Assembly: GCA_937872425.1 (NCBI GenBank)
Contig: CALMSM010000181.1
Coordinates: forward strand, 1 to 45,448
From: an uncultured Candidatus Saccharibacteria bacterium
Lineage (GTDB): Bacteria; Patescibacteriota; Saccharimonadia; Saccharimonadales; CALMSM01
DNA: 45,448 nt
Reading direction: 5' to 3'
Shown here: one piece after another, positions 7,622 through 42,500 of the stretch
How the letters are laid out: the number at the start of each line of letters is the position of its first letter
How positions within the stretch are numbered: position 1 is the stretch's first letter
The notes under the pieces: generated by a model
Database searches by the model: none
Seen by the model: only the letters and a program-made list of their open reading frames with translations
What the model was told of the DNA's origin: nothing
Translations under genes and position numbers: made by a program

Positions 7622-7629
7622 AGATTACT
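7622..7629 (-). promoter_or_regulatory. AGTAATCT motif upstream of the head-protein/scaffold/MCP unit
   Basis: The minus strand reads CACAAGTAATCT. A roughly 41-nt leader containing AAGGAG follows before the ATG at 7580. The motif is back-to-back with the plus-strand promoter at 7629-7658. Confidence 0.45.
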
Positions 7630-7658
7630 TGTGCCCAAATCCCGCCCAGTGGTAATCT
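7629..7658 (+). promoter_or_regulatory. promoter, leaderless layout (zinc-ribbon gene)
   Basis: TTGTGC-N18-(TGG)TAATCT, then 8 nt to the ATG at 7667. No SD. Confidence 0.5.
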
Positions 7659-7666
7659 GAGGGCCA

Positions 7667-7960
7667 ATGACAGGACCCAAGCAGTGCCCAACGTGTGGGA
7701 AAGAGTACCGAAGGCGCTGTGGGCCGTGTAGACGCACCAAATACCAAGTCGAGAACTCAGGTCTCGTACTCGGAATGTGCAAACGATGCCTGGAGCCTAG
7801 AGCGCTCTACAGGAACGGGCAATGCAAGGTCTGCATGAAAACCCAGGGCCTTTGCGAATGCAAGGCGTGCGGGCTCTCATTTGTAGCCGAAATCCATCCT
7901 CGCCGGGGAATCTGCAAAGAGTGCAGAAACCGTTCAAGGCGGGTCAGTCGACAGGAATAA
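7667..7960 (+). CDS. multi-CxxC zinc-ribbon protein (moron-like, opposite strand to surrounding genes)
   Basis: 97 aa with six CxxC pairs (CPTC, CGPC, CKRC, CKVC, CKAC, CKEC). It has its own promoter, TTGTGC-N18-TGGTAATCT, 8 nt before the ATG. The 3' end overlaps the convergent GGDEF gene by 17 nt. Confidence 0.65.
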   Translation: MTGPKQCPTCGKEYRRRCGPCRRTKYQVENSGLVLGMCKRCLEPRALYRNGQCKVCMKTQGLCECKACGLSFVAEIHPRRGICKECRNRSRRVSRQE

Positions 7961-9095
7961 TCCCCTCACGGCCGGGCATTCTGCTGGCTGCGTGGGTCTT
8001 GGCCTGGCCCAGAGGTGCGTTGGCGGCCTTCTTGGCAGCCTTGGCGTCCTTGAGAGCCTCTTCAGCGTGGTCGCGGGTCGGACCGAAGCCCAGAGACATG
8101 CTCAGGCGGTGCGTGCCACGAATGGCGGGGATGCCTTCGAACTTGGACCGCAACGAGCGAGCGAAGAGTGCTGCGTGCTCATGGCTAGGTACGTGGGCAA
8201 CGAATTCGTCGCCACCGGTCCTGAAGAGCTTGCCGTTCTTGCGACCTACAGACTCATCCATGGCCTGCCTGAGTGCTCGACCCATGGCAGTGATGGCATG
8301 GTTGCCGGTTTCGTGGTCGTGCATTTTGTTGATGGACCCGAAGTCGTTGCCGTCGAGATGGACGTGGACGCCTTCACGGGGCCTGGACAAAAAGTCGTTG
8401 TAGGCAGCCTTGTTCCCGATGCTAGGAATCATGGTGTCGGTGAACAGGGTTTGGTTGACAGTCTTGAGGGCGTCTGGGTGGACGTGACCTCTCTTGACGG
8501 CCTCGCGAATTTGACCGAGGGCCGCTTCGAGATGGGGCTCAATCTTGGCGAGACTTTCGGACTTCGCCATCGAGGTCTTGACCGAAGGGCGAATGAGGGC
8601 CTTGCCGCTCTTGAGGTGTTCCATGACGAGCTTGGACTCATCGGGCTGCAGGGCCTGGTCGTCGAGGTACATCTGAGAGCCAGAGACCTTGAGGGTCTGA
8701 GGACCGGGCATGCCAGTTCTGTGGTACTCGAATTCGCTGACCTTCGGCCCCGGGAGCTTTTCGGTGATTTGACTGTGGAGTGCTTCGCCCAGGTCTGTCG
8801 GCAAATCGCCGTGACGTGGAGTTTTGGGGAGCAACTCGGGGTACTCGCCTGTGCGAAGGTCGTGGCTCGTGGCAACGACACGTCGCTGAGAAGTCATCAT
8901 GCGCTTGATGATTCGGGCGGCGGATTCGGGAGGCATCTTCGAGAGGTCCTGGTCACCGGCCATACCGTGGTCTTCGAGGACGGACATTTTGCCATCCTTC
9001 ATCCAAAGCTTCCCCAGCAACGTGTGATGCACGTCGTCTTTTTCTTCATGAGGGTGTACGCCAAATACGTAGACGATGTGTTTGTGGTGGTCCAT
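7944..9095 (-). CDS. GGDEF-domain protein (diguanylate-cyclase-like nucleotide cyclase) with His-rich N-terminal domain
   Basis: 383 aa. The C-terminal roughly 110 aa read HVHLDGNDFGSINKMHDHETGNHAI...LFRTGGDEFVAHV...SMSLGFGP...AEEALKDAKAAKK, which matches the GGDEF palm-domain pattern. GGDEF is encoded at 8202-8216. The gene lies in the same operon as the prohead protease. Confidence 0.75.
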   Translation of the reverse strand: MDHHKHIVYVFGVHPHEEKDDVHHTLLGKLWMKDGKMSVLEDHGMAGDQDLSKMPPESAARIIKRMMTSQRRVVATSHDLRTGEYPELLPKTPRHGDLPTDLGEALHSQITEKLPGPKVSEFEYHRTGMPGPQTLKVSGSQMYLDDQALQPDESKLVMEHLKSGKALIRPSVKTSMAKSESLAKIEPHLEAALGQIREAVKRGHVHPDALKTVNQTLFTDTMIPSIGNKAAYNDFLSRPREGVHVHLDGNDFGSINKMHDHETGNHAITAMGRALRQAMDESVGRKNGKLFRTGGDEFVAHVPSHEHAALFARSLRSKFEGIPAIRGTHRLSMSLGFGPTRDHAEEALKDAKAAKKAANAPLGQAKTHAASRMPGREGIIPVD

Positions 9096-13253: not shown

Positions 13254-13262
13254 TGGTAAGAT
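13254..13262 (+). promoter_or_regulatory. extended -10 element upstream of the SLOG gene
   Basis: TGGTAAGAT, with a roughly 50-nt leader to the ATG at 13316. It overlaps the minus-strand AGTAATCT (13259-13266), giving a face-to-face divergent pair. Confidence 0.4.
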
Positions 13263-13266
13263 TACT
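13259..13266 (-). promoter_or_regulatory. AGTAATCT motif upstream of the GIY-YIG/protease/GGDEF unit
   Basis: The minus strand reads CCAGTAATCT. A 24-nt leader with GAGG follows before the ATG at 13234. Confidence 0.4.
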
Positions 13267-13315: not shown

Positions 13316-13663
13316 ATGAGAATCTTGATTTGTGGCACTCGGAATCGCCAACCGGTAGAAATCCTTCGGAAGATTATCGACCTGTTTCCAGTCGGTACGG
13401 TTGTCATCCACGGAGGTGCCCGTGGCGTCGATTCCACAGCGGGCCAAGTCGCGAGCCAGCGTGGGCTCAAAACTGAAGTCTATCTTGCCGAATGGGACAT
13501 CTACGGACCTGGTGCGGGGCCCAAACGAAACCAGCAAATGCTCGAAGCGAGGCCCGACATCGTCATCGCGGTTCACAACGAGCCCGAACTTGGCAAGGGC
13601 ACAGCCGACATGGTGAAGCGCTCTAGAGGCGCGGATTTGCCGGTATTTGTGTTCGGGTGTTGA
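13316..13663 (+). CDS. SLOG-superfamily protein (DUF2493 / YspA-like)
   Basis: Start set at MRILICGTRN. The sequence ...VVIHGGARGVDSTAGQVA...AEWDIYGPGAGPKRNQQML...PDIVIAVH...GKGTADMVKRS...LPVFVF follows the DUF2493 pattern (C-G-R...hGGA-G-D...W...AG..RN..M...GT..M). Confidence 0.75.
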   Translation: MRILICGTRNRQPVEILRKIIDLFPVGTVVIHGGARGVDSTAGQVASQRGLKTEVYLAEWDIYGPGAGPKRNQQMLEARPDIVIAVHNEPELGKGTADMVKRSRGADLPVFVFGC

Positions 13664-13690
13664 CAAAATAGGTCGCGGTAGTGTATAAAT
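13660..13690 (+). promoter_or_regulatory. sigma70-consensus promoter, leaderless layout
   Basis: TTGACA-N18-TATAAA(T), preceded by TG, then 6-7 nt to the ATG at 13697. The -35 hexamer contains the stop codon of the SLOG gene. Confidence 0.6.
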
Positions 13691-13696
13691 CGAGCC

Positions 13697-13879
13697 ATGA
13701 AACTCAACGATCTCGGAACAACAGGTCTCGCAGCCTATGTCCGCGAAGCCAAGAACGGTCGCGCGAAGAACATTCGGCGAATGCACGCCGAACGGGTCTT
13801 GAAGGCGCGCTATCCGCTTTCGAGCTTCTTCGCGGTCGAGCGGTTCAGAAACCTCATCTGCCTCCCGGTGTCACCATGA
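13697..13879 (+). CDS. hypothetical protein
   Basis: 60-aa ORF. Its ATG lies 6 nt after the consensus promoter TTGACA-N18-TATAAA(T). It has an ATGA overlap with the next ORF. This ORF is preferred over the out-of-context 13681..14181 reading. Confidence 0.5.
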   Translation: MKLNDLGTTGLAAYVREAKNGRAKNIRRMHAERVLKARYPLSSFFAVERFRNLICLPVSP

Positions 13880-16150: not shown

Positions 16151-18211
16151 TTACTCCTTGTGCTTGTCGGGCATGTAGTGGTCAATTACAGCAGCGATTT
16201 CGTCCGTTGCCTTTTGGGCGTCGGCTTCGAGCCCGTGGAGGACGTGCTGGATGACCTGGCGCTGATGATGCAAGAGCATTTTCTTGCTAGAAGGAAGCTG
16301 CTGCTCGGACTTCGACATCATCCCTGCGAACTGGTCGACGGTGTTCGTGAGGTCGCCCTGCTGGTCTTTCTGTTCCTGTTGCTGCTGACCCTGCTGTTGC
16401 TGGGCCTGCTGCTGCTGCATTTGCTGCTGCTGCTGCATTTGTTGCTGTTCCATCTGCATCTGTTGCCACTGGAACCAGTTTGGGTTGTTGACGAACTGGA
16501 ACCTGGGGTCCTTGGAGGCGCCCTCGATGCCGAAGAAGAACTCCAGAATCTCGCCGACCAAGAAGTACTTGTCGACGACGGCCTGCCACTGGGGGTTCAG
16601 CAAGAACCGACCAGCCCAACGGCGACCGACGGGGTGCTTTTCGACCTTCTCCAAGACTTCATCCATGGTCATGTGAACGGCCATGTCCTGCTGGAGTCGG
16701 GTCGATTCCTTTTCGGCGGTGTCGACGTCGAGGCCAACGAACTTGAGGGAGCAAGAGTCGGCGAGGTCGGGTGCGAGCAGAGGCAGAACGCGAGCGTTGA
16801 GGAAGTTCTGGAACTGGGCAATCAGAGGCCTGATGCCGACGTCACGATGAGCTTCGAGCTTGTACTCGTTGTTGCTTTCGGACATGGCCTGGTTGTTCGT
16901 ACCACGGCTCAGGTGAGCGTAGCCGGGGAGTTCTTCAGGCGACATCTGGTAGGCCGACAGAATCACACGAGCGTTGGTGTCGCTGAGGTACTGGAACTCC
17001 ATGTCTCGTGACGAGTTGTCGATGGGGTACCAGTTGATTTCATCGTCAGTACCGACACCGAAAATTGGCATACGCCAAGCGTTGCCGACCGAGTTGATGG
17101 ACGCGTTGAATTGCTGACGAACGAACGACACTACGTTCTCGTCAACGTCATCCGACTTGATGACAATCATGCCGCGAGCAGCACGACCAGACTGGAAATA
17201 CAGCTTGTTGTGCGTCCCGATGTTGATGTGCGTGGTGACGGCCGTGATGACCGTGTCGAGAGGGGTGATGGGGTACCCATCAAGCTCGACGTCGGTGCTC
17301 GGGTAGAAATTGTGGACGAAGCATTCGTCGCTCGTGAAGGCCTGGATGGGCTGTCCTTCGACGACCTGGACCCACGAATACTCGTCGGCCACGTACTTCT
17401 CGGGGACGAGCTTCTTGTTCTTGAGGCGTGCGAGGTGGTGAAGGGCCTGCTTACGGACGGCGTCACCGGCTTCCTTGTACGGGGCTGCGCGGAAAATCGT
17501 ACCCGCGTCGATTGGGCGGAACGAGTGGAACTTGCGACCCGATGGGGTGTCAACCCAAATCATTTCCGTGGCTGCCCGTCCGAAGACGACGGCATTGCGG
17601 GCCGACATGAAAAGGTACTGTCCGAAGGTGAGGGCCTCTTGGTCATCCCACCCACGGGTTTCACCGCACGTCATCAGAAGCTGTTCGACCTCAGCGATTC
17701 TCTTCTGAAGGGCTTCCTTCTGTTCGCTCTTCAGGTTCTCGGTGAAGCGAGGCTTGGGTTCAAGACGTACGCCGGTCGAGAACCGGTCTGGCTGGGGGCG
17801 TCCAAAGGCTGCGAGTTGGTTGCTGCGGGTGTTGACGATTGCGGCGACCAGGTCGTCTTGAATCGAAATGCGCTTCAGGACTTCGTCCGGCAGCAGGCGC
17901 AGCTTTCGCTTCCACAGAGAAGCGTAGACGTTCTGCGAGTTCGGCTGCGTGTCGAAGGCGAGGCGCTCGATAGAGTCACCCGGGCCGTTGAGTACGTTCA
18001 AGACCGACTTGATGAGCGGGTTCGAGTCCGCCATCGCTTGCTCATGAGACTTGAGGTCCGACTTCGACAGCGGCTTCGAGGTCTCAGCGGCGGCGAAATA
18101 CGGGTCAGCGAAGGCCATGCTGACCTTGTTCTTGCGAGGTGCTTCTTGGGTAGGGACGTCGGAGAACTGTTCCAGGATACCCCGCTGGAAAGCCGTGAGT
18201 TTCTTGGCCAT
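16151..18211 (-). CDS. portal protein
   Basis: 686 aa, located between the terminase-proximal gene and the MuF-like gene. Its size and position fit a portal. The C-terminal region carries a poly-Gln tract (QQQMQQQQQMQQQQAQQQQGQQQQEQ). Confidence 0.75.
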   Translation of the reverse strand: MAKKLTAFQRGILEQFSDVPTQEAPRKNKVSMAFADPYFAAAETSKPLSKSDLKSHEQAMADSNPLIKSVLNVLNGPGDSIERLAFDTQPNSQNVYASLWKRKLRLLPDEVLKRISIQDDLVAAIVNTRSNQLAAFGRPQPDRFSTGVRLEPKPRFTENLKSEQKEALQKRIAEVEQLLMTCGETRGWDDQEALTFGQYLFMSARNAVVFGRAATEMIWVDTPSGRKFHSFRPIDAGTIFRAAPYKEAGDAVRKQALHHLARLKNKKLVPEKYVADEYSWVQVVEGQPIQAFTSDECFVHNFYPSTDVELDGYPITPLDTVITAVTTHINIGTHNKLYFQSGRAARGMIVIKSDDVDENVVSFVRQQFNASINSVGNAWRMPIFGVGTDDEINWYPIDNSSRDMEFQYLSDTNARVILSAYQMSPEELPGYAHLSRGTNNQAMSESNNEYKLEAHRDVGIRPLIAQFQNFLNARVLPLLAPDLADSCSLKFVGLDVDTAEKESTRLQQDMAVHMTMDEVLEKVEKHPVGRRWAGRFLLNPQWQAVVDKYFLVGEILEFFFGIEGASKDPRFQFVNNPNWFQWQQMQMEQQQMQQQQQMQQQQAQQQQGQQQQEQKDQQGDLTNTVDQFAGMMSKSEQQLPSSKKMLLHHQRQVIQHVLHGLEADAQKATDEIAAVIDHYMPDKHKE
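16358..16468. repeat. CTG/TTG (CAG/CAA on the coding strand) low-complexity tract encoding poly-Gln
   Basis: The plus strand reads ctgctg...ctgctgttgctgggcctgctgctgctgcatttgctgctgctgctgcatttgttgctg, inside the portal gene. Confidence 0.8.
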
Positions 18212-18215
18212 GAAT

Positions 18216-19202
18216 TTATCCTACCATCAGAACTGTGACGTCAGCGGCGACCGCAGAACGGTTGAAAATCACCAGCGACCAGGTCGGACCGAGACGGGCG
18301 TAGAACCCAGGCTTGGTCGGGTCGCTGGAATCGAAGGGGGTGGTCCTCTGGAAGTCCCCGGTATCGCCATTGACACGGGGGACGACTTCTTGGGTAGATT
18401 CGATGTACAAAAGCCTCTTGGCTTCCGTGAAAAAGCTCATACCGGCGGCACCAGGAACGATGGCGGTCTGCGTAGCCAGAGGCGTGGTGCTGACGAACTC
18501 GACAAAAAGGTCGGTGACAGCGGTGACCTTGAAAATCTGTCGAGCGGAGGCAGAGAACCCTGCAGTGATGTCGAGGGAGTCCCCAATCTGGACGCCAGCG
18601 GCGCTGTAAATCCGGAGTTGGTCGTTGCTGACCGGTGACACGACTTCGCCGATACCTTCAAAGCCCTGGCCCGTGGGTCGCACGAGGGTGATGATTTGTG
18701 AGCTTGTCACGCCGAGAACGGTCCAGTACCCCGCGTTCAGGACTGAAATGACGTTGGCGGCGTCGCCGGTCGTCGTGTGGGGGATGAACACATGGTCGCC
18801 CACGGCTACGGAGCCAAAAATGGCCGAGGCTGCGTTCACGGTCATCGTCGCGTTCGCATTGACGGTGAAGGTGAGAGCTACCCCGCTGGCGGCGATAGCT
18901 CGCCCGGTACGGAGACCTGGGTTGGCCCCACCAGTGTGGGTGATTCGGTACGTGCTGGCATTTTCGACGACCAGCAGGCCGAGTCCGAATGCGGTAGTCC
19001 CGTCAATCGTGGTCGGTCTGACGCCCGTGAAGATGGTCAACGCCTGACCAGGTTCAATCCGATGTGCCTCGATTTTGGGGTCGGTGACGGCAATACCGCT
19101 GACGTCACGAGTCCAGTCCAAAAACCGCAAACGGGGGTTGCTGCTGGCCTGAGCATCGCCGAAAGCGACGATTTTTGCTGTAAAATTGAGGGTAGCTTGC
19201 AT
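18216..19202 (-). CDS. virion-module protein, function unknown
   Basis: Start reassigned to the ATG at 19202 (MQATLNFTAK...), with GGAG 5 nt upstream and 19 nt after the terminase stop. 328 aa, beta-rich and Thr/Val/Gly-rich. Confidence 0.6.
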   Translation of the reverse strand: MQATLNFTAKIVAFGDAQASSNPRLRFLDWTRDVSGIAVTDPKIEAHRIEPGQALTIFTGVRPTTIDGTTAFGLGLLVVENASTYRITHTGGANPGLRTGRAIAASGVALTFTVNANATMTVNAASAIFGSVAVGDHVFIPHTTTGDAANVISVLNAGYWTVLGVTSSQIITLVRPTGQGFEGIGEVVSPVSNDQLRIYSAAGVQIGDSLDITAGFSASARQIFKVTAVTDLFVEFVSTTPLATQTAIVPGAAGMSFFTEAKRLLYIESTQEVVPRVNGDTGDFQRTTPFDSSDPTKPGFYARLGPTWSLVIFNRSAVAADVTVLMVG

Positions 19203-19221
19203 GGAATCTCCGGGGCGTAGA

Positions 19222-21785: not shown

Positions 21786-22128
21786 GGTCCACAGTCCATT
21801 TCGGACCTAGCACTTGACAAACAAGAGCTTCCATCATCTGCTGAACGTCCTCAAGGGTCCGTTCGAATCCACGCGGAGCAGGTCCACCTGAATAGGTTAC
21901 GTGCTGCTTGTCAGTGTCAACTCCCAAAACAACTTTCGAGCCCATGATGAGCATCGCGTTGCGCTTCAGAGTGACAAGCTGGGCTTCGTAGACCTGGCCA
22001 GTCCAGGTCGCGGTCTGCCGCAAGGTCTCGAAGAGCCCGATGCGGGGGTCCCCTGGCTGGGTGACACCACGGCGGGCGGCGGCATTGAGAAGTGGCTTTA
22101 CATCGACTCCGTCGTTTTCTTCAGACAT
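21685..22128 (-). CDS. hypothetical protein with highly basic C-terminal tail
   Basis: Start set at MSEENDGVDV (22128). 147 aa, ending in PASKGRKPAKSKGKRSARKARKR. The last 83-101 nt overlap the next gene in another frame. Confidence 0.5.
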   Translation of the reverse strand: MSEENDGVDVKPLLNAAARRGVTQPGDPRIGLFETLRQTATWTGQVYEAQLVTLKRNAMLIMGSKVVLGVDTDKQHVTYSGGPAPRGFERTLEDVQQMMEALVCQVLGPKWTVDRGTINQDDPRPASKGRKPAKSKGKRSARKARKR

Positions 22129-26754: not shown

Positions 26755-26760
26755 CTCCGG

Positions 26761-27288: not shown

Positions 27289-27289
27289 T

Positions 27290-27318: not shown

Positions 27319-27325
27319 GTCGACC

Positions 27326-27826: not shown

Positions 27827-27832
27827 CCGACC

Positions 27833-29605: not shown

Positions 29606-29874
29606 TGCCTTTGTTCAAATGGAAGTGCGGGGTGTGCGGAACTAAGACCCGCATGCTCTTGACGCAAATCCCCTTGTGTTCACCGACCTGTCCGAACTGT
29701 CCGACCGAACCTCTGCCAGAACTCATGGAACCTGACCACGACGGCTCGACCAGCGTCATGGAATCTCTTGACAACGGGATTATGCCTCGCAAGGTCGAGC
29801 GGTACCGGGACATCGAAGAATTGCGGCACAGCCACGCAGAGTTGACAAAACCCAAAGACGAAGGCATAGTGTGA
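29605..29874 (+). CDS. FmdB-type zinc-ribbon protein
   Basis: 89 aa. FKWKCGVCG...CPNCP matches the CxxC-x(n)-CxxC putative regulatory zinc ribbon. TAATG overlap with the chaperonin gene. Confidence 0.6.
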   Translation: MPLFKWKCGVCGTKTRMLLTQIPLCSPTCPNCPTEPLPELMEPDHDGSTSVMESLDNGIMPRKVERYRDIEELRHSHAELTKPKDEGIV

Positions 29875-30077
29875 CGATGAAAACGCATCAGATTTGTTGT
29901 TCCTGTGCTCAGCAGGACGAAGTCGACCGCCTTGAAAAAGACCGGAAAGCGCTTTACGCAGCACTCAAGGAACTTGTCGAGCGTCGCGAGCGCGTGGCAG
30001 GTGTCGGCAACGAAGGAAGCGACGGACGCTACGCAAGAGCCCGTGCGGCACTGCGTACGTCTGAGGAACTTGGATGA
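29871..30077 (+). CDS. hypothetical protein
   Basis: 68-aa ORF with 4-nt overlaps with both neighbours. Confidence 0.5.
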   Translation: MTMKTHQICCSCAQQDEVDRLEKDRKALYAALKELVERRERVAGVGNEGSDGRYARARAALRTSEELG

Positions 30078-30361
30078 GCGAAGAAGCTACATGTGACGTG
30101 TGTGGCAAAGCTGGTCGGCGTCGGCGGGGGTATTTGGCGCCGGACGATTGGTTGTTTGGAGAGAGCAAGCACTGTGATACTGGCGAAGTCTATGTCGTTT
30201 GGGCATGCTCAAAGACATGTGCTTCATCGTTCTTCAGGCCTGGGCCCTTGAAGTACACTACCGGTACAGACAAAGAGCCAGAGTTGAAGTGCGTAGAGCC
30301 CGGTTGCAACGGAACCGTCCTTAGCGAGGGACAATTTTGCACCGGCTGTGTCCCTTTCTGA
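30074..30361 (+). CDS. hypothetical Cys-rich protein
   Basis: 95-aa ORF with CDVC, C..TC, C..GC and CTGC motifs. Confidence 0.55.
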   Translation: MSEEATCDVCGKAGRRRRGYLAPDDWLFGESKHCDTGEVYVVWACSKTCASSFFRPGPLKYTTGTDKEPELKCVEPGCNGTVLSEGQFCTGCVPF

Positions 30362-30370
30362 GGTGTAAAA

Positions 30371-32278
30371 GTGCGACTCAAGAAGCTAAGAATCCAGAAC
30401 TTTCGAAGCTTCTTAGACTCGACGGTCGAGTTCCCCGAACGTGGCATGGTCCTGATTCGTGGACGAGACCGCACCAGCGGCGAGTCTTCAGGTACGGGCA
30501 AGACTGCCATTTTTTTGGCCATTGCGTACGCCCTCGATTGTCTTCCGTCTGGCTTCACGGCTAAGGCTCTGCAGAACTGGTTCTCGAACGAAGACCTTCA
30601 GGTGACTTTGACCCTTGAGGTCAATGGCAAAGAAGTCGTGCTCTCTCGCGGCACGAAGACCCAGGTCGATTACGGCGACCGTCAAGTCAAAGGTGCCAAG
30701 TCCTACCCCGAAGAGCTTGTGCGCCTGGTCAAGGTTCCGCTCGCATTCATGGGCGCCCTGACATTCCGGCCCCAGGACACCAAGGGTCTATTCCCCTCGA
30801 TGGGTCCGACCGAAAAGTTGGAGTTCCTGAGCGAGCTACTCGGCCTGGGCCAGATTGAGGTCGCCGTTGACAAGGCCGAAGTGACGGCGCGAGGTCTGGC
30901 GACCAAGTATGCGGAGCTTCAGGCTTCCGCAGCGGCAAGCAAGCAGTCCCTTGAGCTTCTTGAATCAACCAAGCCGTTGGAGCCCGAAGGAAACCAGGAA
31001 GAACTGATTGCGACAAGGACCGCTGCGGCAAGCGCTCTGAATACGTTTGACACCATGCTCGCCCAACTGAAGCTTCGGGTCCAGGAAGCCACCAAAGACC
31101 AGACCGACGCCATTTACAGGCGTGTCAAGGAACTTGACAACGAGATTCTCCAGTCTCGCAAGTTCGAGGCCAATCTCTTGGAGCTTGACCGCAGCCGTCA
31201 AGTCGAGCACCAGGCTGCTGCGGCGAAGGTCTTTATCAAGGAAACCGAACTCAGAAGAGTCTGGTTCGCTGCCAAGGCCAATCTCTCCAGTGCAGAAAAG
31301 ACCGTGTCGCGGCTACAGCAAAATCGGTGCCCGACCTGTGACCAGACTTGGGATAGCGCTAAGGAAGAACTCCAGCGGCAACTCGCCATTGTCACCCAAG
31401 AGACCCGAGAAATCCCTGCCCTCGAAGAAGAACTCCGGGTCCTTCAAGAGTCCCGACTCCCCGAGTTCTTGCCCGACCCCAAAATCGCGGCGTGTCGGGA
31501 AATCACCCGCAAGTTGACCGATGAAAAATTCAAGGTGGGCTCTACCCAGGTCACGACCCCTCCAGACATGCTTGAGCGTCTGGTCGCCCTGACTCGTTCG
31601 GTAGAGGAAACCTCAGCCATCAAGCTCAAGGCCGACTGGGAAATTCAGGTCCTTGAAAAAGCTCGCCTGAACTATGAGTCGCAACTGGTCAAGTACACCC
31701 AAGCGGTCGCCTCGCTGCAGGTCAACCGTGGCCTCGCTCTTGACGACCTTCAGACCATCCAGACCAAGCTGAACGCAGAGCGCGACTTCATCGCTCTGAT
31801 GGGCAAGCAGGGGTTCTTGGGGCGTATCGTGGAAGAGGTCCTGGCTGAGATTTCAGACGAGGCCACCAAGTGGCTTGGTCGCATGGCCAACGTGAACCGA
31901 GTCAACATCGTGTTCACGACTGAGAACGAAAAGGGCCGCCAGCAGATTCAGACCTGGGTCGACGTACGGGGAAACCGGGCAAAGCCGGAAGCCGTCCTCA
32001 GTGGCGGACAACTCACTTCGGTCGCTCAGGCCGTCGACCTTGCCGTCATGTCGGTCATCACTCGCCGCAGAGGTGGCGTTGTCCCCGGGTGGCTTTGCTT
32101 GGACGAAGTCTTCAATGGCCAGGGCCAGGTCACCAAGGACGCCAGCCTCGAAATCCTGAAAGAAATCTCCGCTGACAGGCTCGTGATGGTAATCGACCAC
32201 GGGACCGAGACAAAAGAGTCTTTTTCGCGTACAATCGATATCGAGTTCAACGAAGGCATCAGCGAGGTCGTCCAATGA
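30371..32278 (+). CDS. Rad50 / SbcC / T4 gp46-like recombination ATPase
   Basis: 635 aa with a GTG start after GAGGTG. N-terminal LRIQNFRSF...GESSGTGKTAIF (Walker A), a long coiled coil with a central CPTC zinc hook, signature LSGGQ, and Walker B LCLDEVF. Confidence 0.85.
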   Translation: MRLKKLRIQNFRSFLDSTVEFPERGMVLIRGRDRTSGESSGTGKTAIFLAIAYALDCLPSGFTAKALQNWFSNEDLQVTLTLEVNGKEVVLSRGTKTQVDYGDRQVKGAKSYPEELVRLVKVPLAFMGALTFRPQDTKGLFPSMGPTEKLEFLSELLGLGQIEVAVDKAEVTARGLATKYAELQASAAASKQSLELLESTKPLEPEGNQEELIATRTAAASALNTFDTMLAQLKLRVQEATKDQTDAIYRRVKELDNEILQSRKFEANLLELDRSRQVEHQAAAAKVFIKETELRRVWFAAKANLSSAEKTVSRLQQNRCPTCDQTWDSAKEELQRQLAIVTQETREIPALEEELRVLQESRLPEFLPDPKIAACREITRKLTDEKFKVGSTQVTTPPDMLERLVALTRSVEETSAIKLKADWEIQVLEKARLNYESQLVKYTQAVASLQVNRGLALDDLQTIQTKLNAERDFIALMGKQGFLGRIVEEVLAEISDEATKWLGRMANVNRVNIVFTTENEKGRQQIQTWVDVRGNRAKPEAVLSGGQLTSVAQAVDLAVMSVITRRRGGVVPGWLCLDEVFNGQGQVTKDASLEILKEISADRLVMVIDHGTETKESFSRTIDIEFNEGISEVVQ

Positions 32279-32535
32279 AGCTGACTGAGCAGGAGTTGTT
32301 GACAATTGCTTCAGTAGCGCGTAGTAACTGGCACAACATCCCGACCCAAGCGAAGCTGGCTGGAGCCAAGCACTCACATCTCGATGGAGAGCAGCGAGTG
32401 ACGGTTGCCTGGGTCGAAGCTGTAGTTGACATGCTTTCACGAAAGAACTTGATCGACGCTTATTCCAATCCCGGTCTGGGGAAATTGGTCGATCTCGAAA
32501 TCCCAGACCTTGAACCCGACACCGACGGAGCGTAA
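32275..32535 (+). CDS. hypothetical protein
   Basis: 86-aa ORF with an ATGA overlap with the Rad50-like gene. Confidence 0.55.
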   Translation: MKLTEQELLTIASVARSNWHNIPTQAKLAGAKHSHLDGEQRVTVAWVEAVVDMLSRKNLIDAYSNPGLGKLVDLEIPDLEPDTDGA

Positions 32536-32536
32536 A

Positions 32537-32806
32537 ATGAAGAACGCCGACGACCCTTTTGCAGCATTGCCCGAAGAGTTCCGCGACAAGATGGCCAGTT
32601 CGTCGCCTGAAGAAATCAAGGCCGAAATCGCCAGAATTGCCATGGCTGACCAGGACCTGCGTCAGGCCCAGAAGGACGACCAGGACCTGACTGACAAGAA
32701 GGAGCAGGTCAAGTACGCCAACGAGCCCTACAAGGAGGGCTTCAAGGCCAACCGTCTGCAAATCAGCTACCTCAAGCAGGTCCTTGAGGACAAGGGCAAG
32801 GCGTAA
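32537..32806 (+). CDS. hypothetical coiled-coil protein
   Basis: Start at MKNADDPF, with GGAG 6 nt upstream. 89 aa and highly charged. Confidence 0.55.
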   Translation: MKNADDPFAALPEEFRDKMASSSPEEIKAEIARIAMADQDLRQAQKDDQDLTDKKEQVKYANEPYKEGFKANRLQISYLKQVLEDKGKA

Positions 32807-32811
32807 AATCG

Positions 32812-32822
32812 TGTGGTAAGAT
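32812..32822 (+). promoter_or_regulatory. extended -10 element, leaderless layout (ruvC)
   Basis: TGTGGTAAGAT-gtcgag-ATG (32829). Confidence 0.45.
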
Positions 32823-32828
32823 GTCGAG

Positions 32829-33566
32829 ATGAAGATTCTTGCTCTCGACATCTCAACAAAGACCGGCTGGGCGATCTTCGAAACCGGAGTCGCCCAGCCG
32901 GTTGCTTTTGGGGTCTTTGAAAACCCCATCGCAGCGAATTCCATGCCTTATCCGGCAAGCTTCTTGAAGGTCGCAAGGGCTCATGCGTCCTGGCTGAAGG
33001 ACGCAGTCAGGTTTGATCCCGCCAGGACGGTCTTCACCGAGAAAATAGAAATGTGGCCCAACCGTTTCAGCGCCGTCGTCATCGAAGAGACGAACAAGAC
33101 TGGCCGATTCGGGTCACGCCACTCGCAGAAGCTACTTGAGTTTTTGCACTACGCGACAGTAGAAGTTCTTTTGGAGAGCTACCGGGTCGACCAAATCAAG
33201 TATGTCAACACCTCGGACTGGCGCAAGAAGCTCAACCTCAGTGTCGCCGAGACCAAAAAGCTCGCCAAGCCTGCCCTCCGCGAATTTGAAGCGGCCAAGA
33301 AAGCCTTGCTGTCGGAAAAAGACCGAGCTAAGAAGCTCGTTTTGAAGGGTAACCTTGAAACCCTCAAGCGAGACCTCAAGGCGCGCTGTATCCATGGCAA
33401 AATCGACAAAAAATCCATCGCAGTCGCCTTTGCCAACGCTAATTGGGGCCTCACGCTCAAGAAGGGCGACAACGACATTGCGGACGCTTTGTGTTTGGGC
33501 GAAGCGTATCGGCGTGGAGTCCACACGCTCACCAATTCGGACATTTTCGACAGGAAAAACAAATGA
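32829..33566 (+). CDS. ruvC: RuvC-fold Holliday-junction resolvase
   Basis: 245 aa. Catalytic-residue pattern: MKILALDISTKTGWAIF (D), VVIEETN (E), DIADALCLGEA (D). TGTGGTAAGAT sits 6 nt before the ATG. Confidence 0.75.
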   Translation: MKILALDISTKTGWAIFETGVAQPVAFGVFENPIAANSMPYPASFLKVARAHASWLKDAVRFDPARTVFTEKIEMWPNRFSAVVIEETNKTGRFGSRHSQKLLEFLHYATVEVLLESYRVDQIKYVNTSDWRKKLNLSVAETKKLAKPALREFEAAKKALLSEKDRAKKLVLKGNLETLKRDLKARCIHGKIDKKSIAVAFANANWGLTLKKGDNDIADALCLGEAYRRGVHTLTNSDIFDRKNK

Positions 33567-35446
33567 CACAGTGGTCCAACCTAGCCAAAGTGGTGTATTA
33601 CCGGACGTACTCGCGGCACGACGAAGGGAAGCAGGAAAACTGGAAAGACACCGTCAAGCGTGTCATCGCCGGGAACGTCCAGGACCACAAACTCGCTTCG
33701 GGCGAAGCGAGGAACCTTGAGTACTTGCTGTTGAATCGGAAAGCCGGACCTGCTGGTCGCGGTTTTTGGTTCTCGGGTGCTGCTGGTCATCGTGACCTGG
33801 GCGGCGTAGCCCTGAACAACTGCTGGTTCACGACCGCTGAGGACTGGATGAACTTCGTCCTCGCACAGGACCTGCTGATGCTGGGCGGCGGTGTCGGGTT
33901 GTCAGTCGAGTACAAGTACACCTCCAAGCTTCCCATGGTGAAGCGCGGCGTCAATGTCGTCCACAAGTTCACCAAGGATGCCGACTTCATCGTTCCTGAC
34001 AGCCGTGAGGGCTGGAACGAGCTTGTCCGCCGCACCCTTGAGTCCTTCTTGGTCACGGGCAAGTCTTTCAGCTACTCGACCTACGTCATTCGACCCGCAG
34101 GAGAACCCATCAAGGGCTTCGGAGGCAAGGCCTCGGGCCCGCAACCCCTCATCACTCTCGTCGAGAAGATTTCCGGCATCTTGAGGGCCCGTGAGGGCAA
34201 GAAGATTCGTCCTATCGACGCGATGGACATTTTGTGCGCCATCGGCGAAATGGTCGTCTCGGGTAATGTCCGTCGTTCGGCCATCATCATCCTGGGCGAC
34301 CCCTGGGACAAGGACTACCTGAAGGCCAAGCGTTGGGACCTCGGCAACGTGCCGAACCAGCGTGCCATGGCGAACCTTTCGGTCGTCGTAGACGACGTGG
34401 AAGACCTGCACCCGCTGTTCTGGAAGACGTACGAGGCCGGTGAGCCGTTCGGCATCGTCAACCGCACCAACATCCAGAAGTATGGGCGTATGGGCGAACT
34501 GAAGAAGGACACCGCCATCGGCGTCAATCCGTGTGCTGAGGCAACCCTGGAAGGCGGACCTCTCGTCGCAGAGCCCTGTAATCTCCAAGAACTCCCGCTC
34601 CCCAACATCGAAGACGAAGACGAGTTCGTCCTTGCGGCACGTATGATGCACCGCTGGGGCAAGCGCGTCACGATGGAAAAATACCACTGGGGTGGCATTG
34701 ACGAGGTTGTCAAGCGCAACCGCCGAATCGGTACCGGAATTACGGGCTGCCTGCAGAGCCCGCTCTTCAATCCGAAGTCGCTGGACCGTGCGTACCACGC
34801 CATCCAAGAAGAAAACCGCAAGTATTCCAAGGAACTCGGCATCCCCGAGTCGATTCGCACGACCGTGGTCAAGCCATCGGGCACGATGTCCAAGGTGTTC
34901 GATATGCGCGGGTACGAAGGCATTCACCCCGCGTATTCGAGGCACTACATCCAGCGTGTGCGTTTCTCCTCCAATGACCCTCTCGTGCCGATGCTGCGCT
35001 TGGCAGGGCACTACGTCGAGCCTGTACAGCGTTTCGACGGCACGCTTGATTCAAGCACCGTTGTGGTAGACTTCTACGAACAAGCGCCCCAGGGAGCCCC
35101 GGTAGCGGACGAAGACTGGGACACCTGGAAGCAGCTTGACACTCTTTTGATGGCTCAGCGGCACTGGGCAGACCAGGCCGTCTCCGTCACCGTGTACTAC
35201 AAGCGAGAGGACCTGGCCAAGCTCAAGGTCTGGCTGGCAGAAAACCTGAAGAGCCTGAAGTCCATCAGTTTTTTGTGCCACTCCGACCACGGCTTCACCC
35301 AGGCACCCAAGGAAGCCATCGACGCCGATACGTACGCAGAACTTTCTGCAAAAATCAAACCCATCAAGATTGACAGCGACGTCAGTTCGAGCGAAGATCT
35401 ACTCGACGGTCTGGAATGCATGGGGGGAGTGTGTCCGGTAAAGTAG
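33563..35446 (+). CDS. nrdJ: class II (adenosylcobalamin-dependent) ribonucleotide reductase
   Basis: Start at MTQWSNLAKVVYYRTYSR, with an ATGA overlap with ruvC. Active-site NPCAE and the C-terminal Cys pair CMGGVCPV are present. The roughly 627-aa monomeric size is typical of NrdJ. Confidence 0.8.
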   Translation: MTQWSNLAKVVYYRTYSRHDEGKQENWKDTVKRVIAGNVQDHKLASGEARNLEYLLLNRKAGPAGRGFWFSGAAGHRDLGGVALNNCWFTTAEDWMNFVLAQDLLMLGGGVGLSVEYKYTSKLPMVKRGVNVVHKFTKDADFIVPDSREGWNELVRRTLESFLVTGKSFSYSTYVIRPAGEPIKGFGGKASGPQPLITLVEKISGILRAREGKKIRPIDAMDILCAIGEMVVSGNVRRSAIIILGDPWDKDYLKAKRWDLGNVPNQRAMANLSVVVDDVEDLHPLFWKTYEAGEPFGIVNRTNIQKYGRMGELKKDTAIGVNPCAEATLEGGPLVAEPCNLQELPLPNIEDEDEFVLAARMMHRWGKRVTMEKYHWGGIDEVVKRNRRIGTGITGCLQSPLFNPKSLDRAYHAIQEENRKYSKELGIPESIRTTVVKPSGTMSKVFDMRGYEGIHPAYSRHYIQRVRFSSNDPLVPMLRLAGHYVEPVQRFDGTLDSSTVVVDFYEQAPQGAPVADEDWDTWKQLDTLLMAQRHWADQAVSVTVYYKREDLAKLKVWLAENLKSLKSISFLCHSDHGFTQAPKEAIDADTYAELSAKIKPIKIDSDVSSSEDLLDGLECMGGVCPVK

Positions 35447-35457: not shown

Positions 35458-35466
35458 TGGTAATCT
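35458..35466 (+). promoter_or_regulatory. extended -10 element, leaderless layout (HNH)
   Basis: TGGTAATCT-gtagggc-ATG (35474). Confidence 0.45.
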
Positions 35467-35473
35467 GTAGGGC

Positions 35474-36040
35474 ATGAACCGGATAAAACTTGAAGGAACG
35501 AAGATTGGTAAATGGTCCGTTGTTACCCAAGGAGAGTCGGCTCGCGGAATGACTAGATATGTCTGCAGGTGCGAGTGCGGTAGAGAGGCTTTGGTCTATT
35601 CTAAGCATTTGCTCTCTGGTAGCACCCGAGGGTGTCGTCCGTGCTCTGCAAAAGCAGGACGACGCCACCCGCAATTTAAGGGTGTTGGGGAAATAAGCGC
35701 CGACTGGTGGGTAAGTCATCCAGGAAGAAGTGTGACTCTGCACGCTAGAAGACCTATCGAGCTTGCAATCACGATCCAACAGGCCTGGGAATTATTCCTT
35801 GCTCAAGGAAGAAAATGTGCCTTAAGTGGCGAGCCAATTGCGTTCCCTCGGATTAACGCAGAAAAGGGAACAGCCTCGCTTGATCGAATTGACAGCAACT
35901 TGGGTTACGTGCTAGGAAACGTCCAGTGGGTACATAAAGACGTCAATATCATGAAAAACAAATTCGATCAAGACTACTTCATCGGACTTTGTGTCAAAAT
36001 AGCAAGTAAAGGAACTCTATGTACGGATACGAAAAACTGA
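35474..36040 (+). CDS. HNH homing endonuclease (free-standing, between nrdJ and dut)
   Basis: 188 aa. SLDRIDSNLGYVLGNVQWVHKDVNIMKNKF is an HNH/HNN core. The gene is visibly more AT-rich than its neighbours. TGGTAATCT sits 7 nt before the ATG. The 3' end overlaps dut by 22 nt. Confidence 0.8.
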   Translation: MNRIKLEGTKIGKWSVVTQGESARGMTRYVCRCECGREALVYSKHLLSGSTRGCRPCSAKAGRRHPQFKGVGEISADWWVSHPGRSVTLHARRPIELAITIQQAWELFLAQGRKCALSGEPIAFPRINAEKGTASLDRIDSNLGYVLGNVQWVHKDVNIMKNKFDQDYFIGLCVKIASKGTLCTDTKN

Positions 36041-39375: not shown

Positions 39376-39562
39376 CCCCGACTTTGTCAACCTCAAACGG
39401 TACGGGTACAGCGTGAGTAAAGTCCTTGACAGGTTTCCGGAAGGTGCGCCTACAAAGCTGATCGCCCAGGGGTTGATGCTTTCCGAAGAGCAGGTCGAAG
39501 AATTACTCGCGTCGGTCATCCTGAAACTTCGTACAGCACTCAAAGTCGAAGTAGAGGCTTGA
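39338..39562 (+). CDS. stand-alone sigma-70 region-4-like helix-turn-helix protein
   Basis: 74 aa. FVNLKRYGYS...PTKLIAQGLMLSEEQVEELLASVILKLRTAL follows the region 4.1-4.2 pattern (vl.LRyGl....t..eIA..lg.S...V......a..KLR). It overlaps the upstream ORF by 38 nt. Confidence 0.5.
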   Translation: MASDETKKKILSDPDFVNLKRYGYSVSKVLDRFPEGAPTKLIAQGLMLSEEQVEELLASVILKLRTALKVEVEA

Positions 39563-39587
39563 TGTAGTAAAAACAGCGTGGTAGTGA
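39559..39587 (+). promoter_or_regulatory. possible promoter, leaderless layout (dnaE)
   Basis: TTGATG-N17-(TGG)TAGTGA-ggtccta-ATG (39595). The -10 is weaker because its last base is A. Confidence 0.35.
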
Positions 39588-39594
39588 GGTCCTA

Positions 39595-42500
39595 ATGAAA
39601 GCCTTTGTCACCCCGCACTGTCACGTCAAGTCCCTCGATTCCGCCAGTAGCCCCGAAAAGTTCGCTCAGCGTGAGCTTGAGCTTGGAACGGGCTACTTGA
39701 CGGTCACCGACCACGGGACGCTGGAGGCCACCAGGCAGGTCTACGACCTTCTGCGGGACAAGAAGGCGTATAGCTCCATCAAGCCCATCCTGGGCCTTGA
39801 GGGCTACTTCAGGGACGACAACTGTTCCATCTTGGCAGGTAACAACGCTGCCAGGTCGCCGGACGGAACGTTCCGGGACGCAATCAAGTACACCCACATC
39901 ACTCTCCACGCCATGGATGAGCCTGCGTACTCGACTCTGTCGAAGGTCTTGTCGCAGGCCGACCTTAGGGCCGAGAAACACGGGCAGGAGCGCAAGCCTC
40001 TGTTCACGTGGGAGAACCTCGAAGAGCTTGGCGCCCAGAACATGACCGCCACGAGCGGATGCCTCATCGGCATGGTCGGTCGGCATCTACTCAAGAACAA
40101 CGACTTCGATTCGGCGGTCAAGTACTACCGCAAGCTCCGCAGCGTGTTCAAGCCTGGGAATTTCTACGTCGAGATTTTCCCCCACGTCTGCGACCGCAAC
40201 TGGGAAGTCAAAATTACCGTCACGGACTCCTTCGGTAAGCAGACTGACTATCCCTACTGGAAGAAGGTCAAGACCCTCGGTGCTCCTGACGGTATCAAGC
40301 TGGAGGAACTGGCCACCCAGTTCAAGACCAACGCCCAGAAGGCTGCGGCCCTGCACACCGCCATCGTGGAAGTGACCGAGAACCGCAAGAGCGTGCCTCT
40401 GGCGGAACCTCTTATGCTCGTCAACGTCGTACGTCACGAGGGCTGGCTGCACAACGAGTGCCGACCGTGGTCGCCTGACGGTGACGTCCAGTTGGGCGTC
40501 AACAAGTTCTTGCTGAAGCTCGCGGCCATGCACAACGACCCCGTGCTGATTAGCGACGACAGCCACTTCGCGTTCCCGGAAGAGAAAATTGTCCAGGACA
40601 TTCGTCTTGGCCAGAACGGCACGTGGAAGTTTTCGAACAGCCACCACCGCATGTCGACCGACGAGGCCCTGGACTACTTCAAGTCGCGAATGGACATGTC
40701 CGAGGGCCAGGTCGAGAAGATGGTCGAGACCTCTCACGAGTGGGCGTCGCGCTTCCGCGACTTTAAGTTCGGCTCCAGGAAGTCTCTGCCGACGTCGTTC
40801 TACCCCGAGAACACCCTCAAGCACACCCTGGCGCTCATCAAGCACCACGGTCGCATGGACTGGACCAACCCGGAACGTGTCGCCCGGCTCGATGCAGAAA
40901 TCAACCTTCTTTACAAGAACGGCACCGTCGATTTGTTGCCGTACTTCATGATTGACGAAGAAGTCTGCCGTCTGTACGCAAAGAACGGCCTTTTGACGGG
41001 TCCCGGTCGAGGTTCGGCCGCAGGCCTTTCGTTGGCGTATTACCTCGGCATCACGCACTGCGACCCGATGAAGTACAAGCTTTCGATGGACCGGTTCTTG
41101 ACGATTGACCGCGTTCAGACCGGCAAACTCCCAGACATTGACCAGGACCTTCCTTCACGCGACCTGCTGGTCGGCACAGACGAGCAGGGTGGCTGGCTCC
41201 AGAAGCGCTTTGGGGACCATGTCGCTCAGATTTCCACCGACACGACCATGAAGCTCAAGTCGGCCATCAAGGACACCTTCCGGGCCATGGACCGTGAAGC
41301 GGGGAACCCCGACCCGAAGGTGCCAGACCACATCGAAGCCTTCTGCAAGGGCCTTCCAAACCCCCCACAGGGCATTCCTGACCGGGACTACGTGTTCGGG
41401 TACAAGGACAACGACGGGCACTGGATTCCGGGTCTTCTGGAGACCGATGTGCGTCTCCAGGAGTTCACGACCAAGTACCCCAAAGAGTGGAACGTCGTGC
41501 AGATGCTGCTCGGGCTCCCTCGTCAGAAGTCACGCCACGCCTGCGCCTACGTCATCAGCGACTCGCCCATTTCAAGCTTCATCCCGCTGATGACGGTCGG
41601 TGGTGTTCGCGTCACGTCGTTCACTGCCGCTGGAGTCGAGGCTGCGGGCGGTCTGAAGATGGACTTCCTGGTCGTGAACTCGATCCTCGACATCGGCAGA
41701 GCCCTGAAGCTCGTACGCGACCGCCACACCGAAGGGGACATGTGCCCCGAGGACGAAGATGGCATCCCCTACGTAGAAATCAAGGGCAAGAAGGTACCCC
41801 TGATTCGTGCCGTGCCCTTCAACGGCGAATGGGTCGACGTCTGGGACCTTCCCGAAGACCCCGACGTGTTCAAGGACATCTGCGAGGGGCGGGTCGAGAC
41901 GGTATTCCAGTTCGACGCAGGCGCCGCTCGTCAGGGCCTCAAGTATTTTCATCCAGAGCCCGGGACACCTCTACCACTGAGCACCATCGAAGGTCTTTCT
42001 GCCTTCACGGCGTTGGACCGCCCAGGTCCTCTGGACGCCAACGTGAAGGACGAGTTCGGCAACGAGCACAACATGCTTGTCGAGTACTCGAATCGAGCAC
42101 GAGGCCAGAAAGCCATCGGCAATTTGCCCGTCCTGGACAAGCTTTTGCCTGAGACCTACGGCGTCATCGTGTACCAAGAGCAGCTACAGTACGTCTTCCA
42201 GACGATTGGCAACACAACCGCCATCGAAGCCAACAACTTCCGCAACCGTATCTCGAAGAAGAAGATGGTTGAGGTCAACAAAATCGACAAGCCCCTGTTC
42301 ATGAAGGGCGCCATCGAGTCTTTGGGTCTGGAAGTGGCTGAGGTGTTGTGGTCGCAGATGCAGACCTTCGGACAGTACGGCTTCAACAAGTCGCACGCAG
42401 TTTGTTACGTCACCATCGCCTACGCCTGCGCCTGGCTGAAGCACCACTACCCGCTCGAATGGTGGTGTGCCGTTCTCAGCAACGCAGACCGCAACGAAAT

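Follow-up and report, generated by a model that had tools for sequence, protein, structure and literature searches.

The window examined here, that is, the whole 45,448-nt stretch of contig CALMSM010000181.1 (C181; assembly GCA_937872425.1), raises the question of why many of its genes begin 6–8 nt behind a TGnTAnnnT box, mostly without a Shine–Dalgarno (SD) sequence. The window is the entire contig C181 of a 1.59-Mb, 287-contig metagenome-assembled genome (MAG, G000) and, judging by its genes, is part of a phage of about 165 kb, a relative of Myxococcus phage Mx1, whose contigs were binned into a Saccharibacteria MAG. We conclude, with a probability of roughly 0.8, that many genes of this phage carry a sigma-70-type promoter that would start the mRNA at, or 1–2 nt before, the start codon.

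Promoter-like boxes adjacent to start codons

A preliminary description of the window had listed ten upstream elements, and 10/10 lie where it had placed them, with the spacing it had given. A TTGnnn hexamer at 17–18 nt was likewise confirmed at 7667, 13697, 14620, 27326, 39595 and 26754, as well as in the minus-strand promoter at 1409–1381. The form (TG)TGnTAnnnT, ascribed to every listed start, holds for most of them; the boxes at 13697 (TATAAA) and 14620 (TATAAG) do not end in T, and that at 39595 reads TAGTGA.

Two tests show that the position of the box is not random. The motif-first test is free of gene calls and counts only ATGs that open an open reading frame (ORF) of at least 50 codons. 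TGNTANNNT occurs in 37 copies on both strands, giving 14 motif–ATG pairings at 0–30 nt, 10 of which fall at 6, 7 or 8 nt (4, 3 and 3, respectively). The gene-first test used 48 starts curated by codon-usage score, SD context, and orthologue alignments. TGnTAnnnT at 6–8 nt precedes 11 of these 48 starts versus 0 of 1,085 other ATGs (Fisher p = 2e-16), and the TG extension is present in 11/11 TANNNT boxes at this distance, three of which read TGTG. Comparison with shuffled upstream regions, a check set beforehand, agrees: over 2,000 dinucleotide shuffles the motif turned up 0.11 times on average and never more than twice (11 observed). The box-at-ATG observation is thus confirmed and extended, and the layout is widespread in this phage.

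Lack of an SD at box-led starts applies to 9/11 of them, which have no core SD at 4–12 nt; 7667 and 18211 are the exceptions, and 39595 also has a GAGG. The contrast with other genes roughly holds, a core SD being found in 2/11 box-bearing starts versus 22/37 others, and 9 of the 15 SD-less starts without a box overlap the preceding stop codon. Other parts of the preliminary description went too far. The boxes had been taken to open runs of co-oriented genes, but six of the ten sites (4663, 14620, 27833, 32829, 35474 and 39595) lie inside such runs, 6–85 nt after the previous gene. For the same reason, the claim of a near-complete operon map is overstated; five sites had also been missed, at 1886(−), 18211(−), 21767(−), 25248(−, GTG start) and 811(−). 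Furthermore, the structural heads 7580, 3985, 13234 and 19202 are SD-led from a separate GTAATCT box 16–41 nt upstream, and the ten listed sites mix three promoter classes. As to the leaderless reading, the boxes do behave as promoters abutting start codons in their position, their TG and −35 partners, and their conservation; the leaderless mRNA itself is deduced from this geometry.

In the proposed mechanism, sigma region 2 would bind the TAnnnT box and sigma region 3.0 the TG, which would make a −35 element dispensable, as at the TGTG sites 27833, 32829 and 4663. Transcription would start about 7 nt downstream of the box, so that RNA polymerase would begin at, or 1–2 nt before, the A of the ATG and yield an mRNA with neither leader nor SD. 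The 5′-AUG would then be translated without SD pairing, and downstream genes would use GGAG-type SDs or stop–start overlap.

Three classes of boxes

The boxes were compared across the contigs and relatives of the phage. At least eight further MAG contigs were assigned to it: C164, C242, C143, C252, C281, C50 and C215 by protein matches to the relative G001, and C185 by a 32-nt end shared with C143, an 88%-identical copy of the 13657–13699 promoter, and 17 tRNA genes. The nine phage contigs including the window amount to 167,202 bp, and the other contigs without the window to 121,754 bp. The closest named phage is Mx1 (OR576727.2, 169.6 kb), which shares gene order and has protein identities of 57% for the major capsid protein and 47% for Pol III alpha. 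Two IMG/VR relatives are G001 (164,882 bp, complete per CheckV), with a protein identity of 57–63%, and G002 (58,725 bp), with a nucleotide identity of ~89–95% to window 17480–45448.

Class E has the form TTGAC[G/A]-17/18-TATAAn, where the numbers between elements are spacings in nt. It is present in the window at 13697, 14620 and 1409(−) and precedes small ORFs, mostly in the tRNA-rich C185 region. The other contigs hold 54 TTGACN-16..18-TANNNN motifs, with an ATG at 6 nt in six cases and at 7 nt in eight, and at most two ATGs at any other distance from 0 to 40 nt; 16 of the 54 have an ATG at 5–8 nt. Eight of these class E motifs lie on C185.

Class M has the form (TG)TGnTAnnnT with a weak −35 or none, and is found ahead of the helicase, HTH protein, GroEL, RuvC-like, 21767 and sigma-like genes. 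The genes behind it are those of replication and recombination, together with the sigma gene of the phage. The TGTG sites 27833, 32829 and 4663 have no TTG at 16–19 nt, and six other listed sites have TTGnnn.

Class L is a near-invariant GTAATCT before structural and homing-endonuclease genes, either 7–8 nt from the ATG or 16–50 nt upstream of an SD-led start. An unbiased k-mer count covered the 60 nt before each first-ATG ORF of 90 or more codons; GTAATCT was the top 7-mer, with 28 of its 44 genomic copies in these regions (12-fold, p = 7e-21). Copies on the other contigs have their nearest ORF start (ATG or GTG) 7 nt away in eight cases and 8 nt away in three; in 12 cases the box is 16–31 nt upstream of the start, many with an SD-like stretch between. 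Within the window, it stands 7–8 nt before 4663, 7667, 35474 and 811 and 16–41 nt before the SD-led 7580, 3985, 13234 and 19202, and the G001 counterparts of these SD-led heads (4/4) have the box about as far upstream. G001 uses [A/G]TAATCT in 40 copies, 36 on the plus strand and 16 at 7–9 nt before an ORF start. In Mx1, TAATCT is not enriched (31 observed, 51 expected) and CAATCT(T) is. For classes E, M and L, we infer an early, middle and late programme, respectively. The sites in the window are as follows.

7629–7669, plus strand: TTGTGC-18-(TG)G-TAATCT-8-ATG of a 97-aa Cys-rich ORF; holds GTAATCT (class L); GAGG 4 nt before the ATG

13660–13699, plus strand: class E, TTGACA-18-TATAAA-7-ATG of a 60-aa ORF; a 43-nt copy (88% identity) lies on C185

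14585–14622, plus strand: class E, TTGACG-17-TATAAG-6-ATG of a 67-aa ORF

26752–26790, minus strand: class M, TTGCAT-18-TGATACCAT-6-ATG of the helicase, head of the leftward arm; G001 orthologue TGTGATACTCT-6-ATG

27290–27328, plus strand: class M, TTGACC-17-TGGTATCCT-7-ATG of a 166-aa HTH protein, head of the rightward arm; G002 retains both hexamers and spacings (TTGACC-17-TACCGT-7) with a diverged spacer

27814–27835, plus strand: class M, TGTGCTAGAAT-8-ATG of the GroEL-like chaperonin, no −35, 6 nt past the previous gene; in the G001 orthologue, TGTGCTACAAT is retained but the same start codon is reached over a 22-nt AGGAG leader

32812–32831, plus strand: class M, TGTGGTAAGAT-6-ATG of the RuvC-like resolvase; TGTGTTAGAAT-6 in G001 and GGCTAGTCT-6 in Mx1; in G002 the box is retained and the upstream flank is unalignable

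35458–35476, plus strand: class L, TGGTAATCT-7-ATG of an HNH endonuclease; the gene (35474–36040) with its own box is absent from the ~95%-identical G002

39559–39597, plus strand: TTGATG-17-TGGTAGTGA-7-ATG of Pol III alpha; the weakest site, with an A-ended box, GAGG 5 nt before the ATG, and no G001 counterpart

4661–4720, minus strand: terminator hairpin, then TGTGATAATCT-7-ATG of a homing endonuclease; class L box

1884–1901, minus strand: additional site, TGATATGAT-6-ATG of a 118-aa ORF; the tail-spike stop codon supplies the TGA of the box

18209–18226, minus strand: additional, ambiguous site, TGGTAGGAT-6-ATG of the portal gene; AGGA within the box could be an SD; not conserved in G001

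21765–21784, minus strand: additional site, class M, TGGTACTAT-8-ATG of a 207-aa ORF upstream of TerL; G001 orthologue TGTGGTAGAAT-6-ATG

24208–25263, minus strand: sigma-70-family gene (346 aa) with TGATACTCT-6-GTG, class M

7622–7628, minus strand: GTAATCT 41 nt before the SD-led ATG 7580, head of the capsid module; ATAATCT 50 nt upstream in G001

4025–4031, minus strand: GTAATCT 39 nt before the SD-led ATG 3985; GTAATCT 49 nt upstream in G001

13259–13265, minus strand: GTAATCT 24 nt before the SD-led ATG 13234 of an HNH-like gene; GTAATCT 17 nt upstream in G001

19219–19225, minus strand: ATAATCT 16 nt before the SD-led ATG 19202; GTAATCT 17 nt upstream in G001

809–885, minus strand: TTGACA-17-TAGAAT (885–857), then GTAATCT-7-ATG (811) of a 143-aa Cys-rich ORF

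1381–1409, minus strand: TTGACG-17-TATAAG, a promoter previously described as having no ORF; GTAATCT (1261–1255) and a 127-aa ORF lie downstream

169–416, minus strand: tRNA-Lys(CTT) and tRNA-Thr(CGT), with TTGACG-18-TGTGGTAGAAA (337–308) upstream of tRNA-Lys

The hairpin upstream of the 4663 box (GGGCCC-GCAC-GGGCC followed by U5; −16.5 kcal/mol, z = −2.95) marks a unit end. A second unit-end hairpin, followed by U8, lies upstream of 3551 (−18.3 kcal/mol, z = −3.9).

Several further observations concern the surroundings of these boxes. Twice on the minus strand, the TGA stop codon of the upstream gene supplies the TG(A) of the next extended −10, at the tail spike (1899–1901) and at the helicase (25261–25263). 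The box-led start 21767 (ORF 21144–21767(−)) is overlapped by 83 nt by a 147-aa ORF (21685–22128(−)) with its own GGAG SD. Both ORFs may be real, as far as orthologues can tell; the 147-aa ORF has them in G001 and G002. The TAATCT box is also present at the endonuclease-like genes 4663 and 13234, which have PHROG homing-endonuclease matches, and at small CxxC ORFs starting at 811 and 1243.

Window 1–1500 (minus strand) is low in GC and contains two tRNAs and three strong class E promoters (1409, 885 and 337). The small CxxC ORFs 380–811 and 860–1243 (minus strand) have poor coding scores and a GTAATCT box ahead of each; ORF 380–811 overlaps tRNA-Thr by 37 nt. On C185 (9790–9876), TTGACG is followed after 18 nt by a GTAATCT that ends 7 nt before the 5′ end of tRNA-Gln(CTG) as called by ARAGORN. 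If this call is right, the transcript would have no 5′ leader.

Conservation in the phage family

The layout is shared with G001. Among ATG or GTG starts of ORFs with 40 or more codons, boxes of class E, M or L stand at 6–8 nt before 47 starts on the nine contigs of this phage (controls: 6 at 12–14 nt and 9 at 0–2 nt) and before 58 starts in G001 (9 and 2). In Mx1, the corresponding number is 5 (4 and 1). Class E motifs of Mx1 peak instead at 25–27 nt before the ATG, with a conserved leader that contains GGAG (~20-nt SD leaders).

Individual genes give the same picture. The helicase, RuvC-like and 21767 genes also have a box in G001, there 6 nt before the ATG, at 40–59% protein identity. Orthologue alignments of the helicase, GroEL, RuvC-like and sigma genes reach residues 1–3. 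The G001 orthologues of the GroEL and sigma genes retain TGTGnTACAAT but have 22–25-nt SD leaders to the same start codon; since box and start codon are both shared, a leader has been gained or lost without the start moving.

For the wider family, 76 loci (L114–L189) were fetched with a sigma profile. Box counts per locus are too small to classify single loci, and orthologous starts were therefore compared. Among 62 orthologues of the sigma gene with an aligned N-terminus and enough upstream sequence for scoring, a TG-extended box lies 6 nt upstream of the start in 12; the remaining starts have a box 18–25 nt upstream plus an SD (3), an SD only (20), or another arrangement (27). All 12 belong to the 21 orthologues that are at least 46% identical to the window sigma, versus 0/41 below this value, indicating that the box-at-start layout is a trait of one branch of the family. 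Read from these alignments, one and the same gene would be leaderless in some family members and leadered in others. The sigma-bearing family spans 33–69% GC, with contigs of up to about 171–180 kb, and this GC span implies many different hosts.

A divergent phage sigma factor

The ORF 24208–25248(−) gives 13 weak matches to sigma-70 NCBIfam models, all in region 2 (best E = 2.7e-4). A profile of 26 family sequences gives 57 matches among PDB sequences, 55 of which are sigma factors, and the best, RpoD (E = 4.9e-6), covers regions 2–4. A total of 313 metagenomic homologues of ~350 aa were found, many of them called sigma subunit by the Joint Genome Institute (JGI), and the Mx1 orthologue is annotated as a putative sigma factor. 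All 26 aligned sequences share M1. By these matches, the phage encodes a divergent sigma factor. This protein, with a class M box at its own start, may be made in the middle phase and may read the class L boxes.

Alternative explanations

Chance co-occurrence in a sequence of 57% GC is counted as refuted. The motif is indeed not over-represented overall (37 copies versus ~55 expected from base composition), but it precedes none of the 1,085 control ATGs, never exceeds two hits in the 2,000 shuffles, and shows the same spacing on the other contigs and in G001. A non-SD ribosome-binding signal on leadered mRNAs would account for a TA-rich box at ribosome-binding-site distance before genes that mostly have no SD. 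This explanation is very improbable: a TG stands one base upstream of the box, TTGACN lies at 17–18 nt, and the same boxes recur 16–50 nt ahead of SD-led genes, with one class E box ~67 nt upstream of tRNA-Lys. Because of these partners at promoter spacing, of the recurrence ahead of SD-led genes and a tRNA, and of the G001 GroEL and sigma genes, where the box precedes an SD leader, the boxes are taken as transcription rather than translation signals. It is somewhat less improbable, though still unlikely, that the boxes are promoters of mRNAs that are not leaderless, with true starts further downstream or with the main transcripts coming from upstream promoters. Several sites do lie 4–32 nt after a co-oriented gene, and G001, G002 and Mx1 lack homologues of the small ORFs at 7667, 13697 and 14620. 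However, the orthologue alignments that extend to residues 1–3, the SD-led GroEL and sigma starts of G001 that align to the same codon, and the M1 invariant in 26 sigma homologues all argue for the assigned starts, and a sharp box–ATG spacing peak would not arise if these ATGs were irrelevant.

The alternative with the most in its favor accepts the boxes as promoters but assigns class L to the host primary sigma, the phage sigma acting elsewhere or on another motif. We regard this as possible, though we lean against it. GTAATCT agrees with TAnnnT, most of its copies on the remaining phage contigs have G two bases ahead of TAATCT (−14), which resembles an extended −10, and TG(G/A)TAATCT occurs three times in the window. 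Yet all six TAATCT positions and the preceding purine are fixed in class L, whereas class M varies at positions 3–5; GTAATCT also tracks structural genes and is strand-biased (36 of 40 copies on the plus strand in G001), and Mx1 has CAATCT(T) in its place. A C at position 1 is unusual in a primary-sigma box.

Several points weigh against promoters at start codons as set out above, or against parts of that reading. Leaderlessness is read from the box–ATG geometry, and spacings of 7–8 nt could leave a leader of 1–2 nt; similarly, what ties the phage sigma to GTAATCT is co-occurrence only. The starts 4663, 21767 and 27326 were chosen with the box in view over longer TTG or GTG ORFs, a choice that leaves the motif-first test untouched because that test is independent of gene calls. 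A generic −35/−10 scan of the window was not above shuffles (5 vs 4.5, 4 vs 4.2 and 5 vs 3.1), nor were the terminator-like counts in this consensus scan; the scan misses most box sites because it requires a −35 and a final T. The −10 of class E often ends in A, G or C, where the consensus has T. The box at 39595 ends in A and is accompanied by an SD, and SD-like cores lie close to or within the boxes of 7667 and 18211. Finally, several sites lie 4–12 nt past the previous gene with no terminator between; therefore, read-through transcripts must also exist.

Source assembly and host

Pfam and PHROG scans of 50 candidate ORFs identified phage genes in both arms of the window. The leftward genes encode a tail spike, homing endonucleases, the major capsid protein, a GGDEF-like cyclase, a 1,184-aa protein (prohead protease in the Mx1 annotation), the portal, the large terminase, SbcD, and the helicase. 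The rightward genes encode the GroEL-like chaperonin, SbcC, the RuvC-like resolvase, a class II ribonucleotide reductase, the HNH endonuclease, dUTPase, an exonuclease, and Pol III alpha. The ribonucleotide reductase (33563–35446) is of the B12-dependent class II, and the Mx1 record (160745–163419) has class Ia alpha and beta subunits instead. A distant-mode blastn search of window 27000–34900 gave no match in the phage collection.

The MAG G000 is apparently chimeric, with ~1.10 Mb of Saccharibacteria, ~167 kb of the Mx1-like phage, and ~325 kb of other, higher-GC contigs. Its core is Candidatus Saccharibacteria (188 contigs below 53% GC, 1.10 Mb in total), with an rpoB fragment 94% identical to that of a Saccharibacteria MAG. 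C189 and C123, both sampled from the ~325 kb, carry genes of a different tailed phage, namely a terminase, a portal, and a 2,756-aa tape measure. The 19 runs listed as sources (17 apparently DNA, 2 of unspecified kind, none marked as RNA) come from wastewater, groundwater, freshwater, biofilm, and sludge.

The evidence on the host points in two directions: kinship with Mx1 to Myxococcota, and the layout to a host that copes well with leaderless mRNA. The preliminary description had seen in the boxes a hint at host type, naming Actinobacteria and Deinococcus-Thermus. This was overstated; the nearest cultured relative infects Myxococcus and uses leaders, and no link to either group was found. 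The Saccharibacteria core has a box-at-ATG signature like that of the phage: ahead of first-ATG ORFs with 100 or more codons, TANNNT occurs 111, 81, 65 and 53 times at 6, 7, 8 and 9 nt, respectively, versus ~30 elsewhere. The boxes at 6–7 nt have a TG in 73 of 192 cases, and the commonest hexamers are TATACT, TACAAT and TATAAT. The GC content of the phage is 8 points above that of the core.

Co-binning was rejected as host evidence, since unrelated tailed-phage contigs share the bin and show no box-at-ATG peak. A blastn-short comparison of the phage contigs, G001, G002 and Mx1 with the rest of the MAG gave five matches, four on C185, itself phage, and one tRNA-like, and thus no spacer link. 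Likewise, 20 kb of the window compared with 401 genomes of the MAG's class gave only short matches in 47 genomes and no spacer link; most of them fall repeatedly on a handful of positions within the dUTPase and Pol III alpha genes, and they were not read as spacers. The neighbours of the ribonucleotide reductase in the Atlas are viral clusters only and give no host pointer. A literature listing on leaderless transcription start sites of Myxococcus xanthus showed nothing relevant, and nothing on the hosts of Mx1-like phages was found in the available part of a preprint on myxophage CRISPR.

A speculative scenario, which we consider rather unlikely, is that one branch of the family slid its promoters to the start codons, whereas relatives such as Mx1 kept these boxes ~20 nt upstream together with an SD, that the loss of leaders marks a move to a leaderless-proficient host, possibly the co-binned Saccharibacteria of the Candidate Phyla Radiation (CPR) with their own box-at-ATG signature, and that GTAATCT is a −10-only promoter read by the phage sigma. 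If this were true, the phage would be unusually large for one that infects CPR bacteria, and host prediction could make use of box-to-ATG spacing.

Implications

The boxes fix start codons that length-based calling misplaces (4663, 21767 and 27326) and bring to light small genes that score poorly as coding sequence, 7667 and 811 among them. Three box types together with a phage sigma provide a concrete early, middle and late hypothesis for the uncultured family that contains Mx1. From the leader differences between Mx1, this phage and G001 and between the GroEL and sigma orthologues, it follows that promoter–ATG spacing shifts readily. This spacing is a candidate marker of host translation habits.

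Comparison with known systems

A promoter that abuts a start codon has precedents in bacteria. A Pribnow box 6–8 nt from SD-less starts defines the 'group C' bacteria of GeneMarkS-2, and the same layout is called '−10 region adjacent to ORFs' in Deinococcus-Thermus (PMC6028130, PMC3160421, PMC12340547). One of these sources also reports a Pribnow box 6–8 nt from leaderless gene starts in M. tuberculosis (PMC6028130). This phage resembles group C bacteria in having the box 6–8 nt from SD-less starts and differs from them in having three box types and many sites inside gene runs rather than only at operon heads.

Among phages, those of Thermus provide the nearest parallel. Primary studies reportedly describe leaderless transcripts for phiYS40 and extended −10 middle and late promoters for P23-45. 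A preprint states that Thermus phage Lalka27a, like YS40, has mostly leaderless transcripts and that promoters of these phages contain TAxxxT, some TGx-extended without a −35, with a distinct late box (bioRxiv 10.64898/2026.04.20.719267). The P23-45 middle and late promoters are placed in the extended −10 class in another source (PMC7403470). Like this phage, the Thermus phages use host-type TAnnnT boxes, some with TGn and no −35. Their transcripts begin at the initiator codon and their promoter classes differ by stage with a distinct late −10, features that are read here from sequence alone. Unlike them, this phage is a relative of Mx1, was recovered from DNA of wastewater, groundwater and freshwater, and has GTAATCT as a candidate late box and its own sigma-70-family protein.

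Late promoters that depend on a phage sigma are known from T4, where gp55 recognizes TATAAATA, and from SPO1, with gp28 and gp33/34. This phage shares with both a divergent phage sigma and a short, near-invariant −10-like box before structural genes without a −35. The differences are that its sigma aligns to primary-sigma regions 2–4 and that the link between sigma and box is here only a candidate one.

With Mx1, this phage shares a syntenic helicase, sigma-like gene, SbcD, TerL, portal, and capsid in one arm, GroEL, SbcC, and Pol III alpha in the other, and TTGACn-17-TGnTAnnnT promoters. Yet the Mx1 promoters stand 25–27 nt before the ATG with a GGAG leader, so that only 5 starts have a box at 6–8 nt versus 47 in this phage and 58 in G001; CAATCT(T) is enriched in Mx1 rather than TAATCT, and its ribonucleotide reductase is of class Ia rather than class II. 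Collectively, the mechanism of a promoter at the ATG is already known from other phages and bacteria, and the gain here is descriptive.

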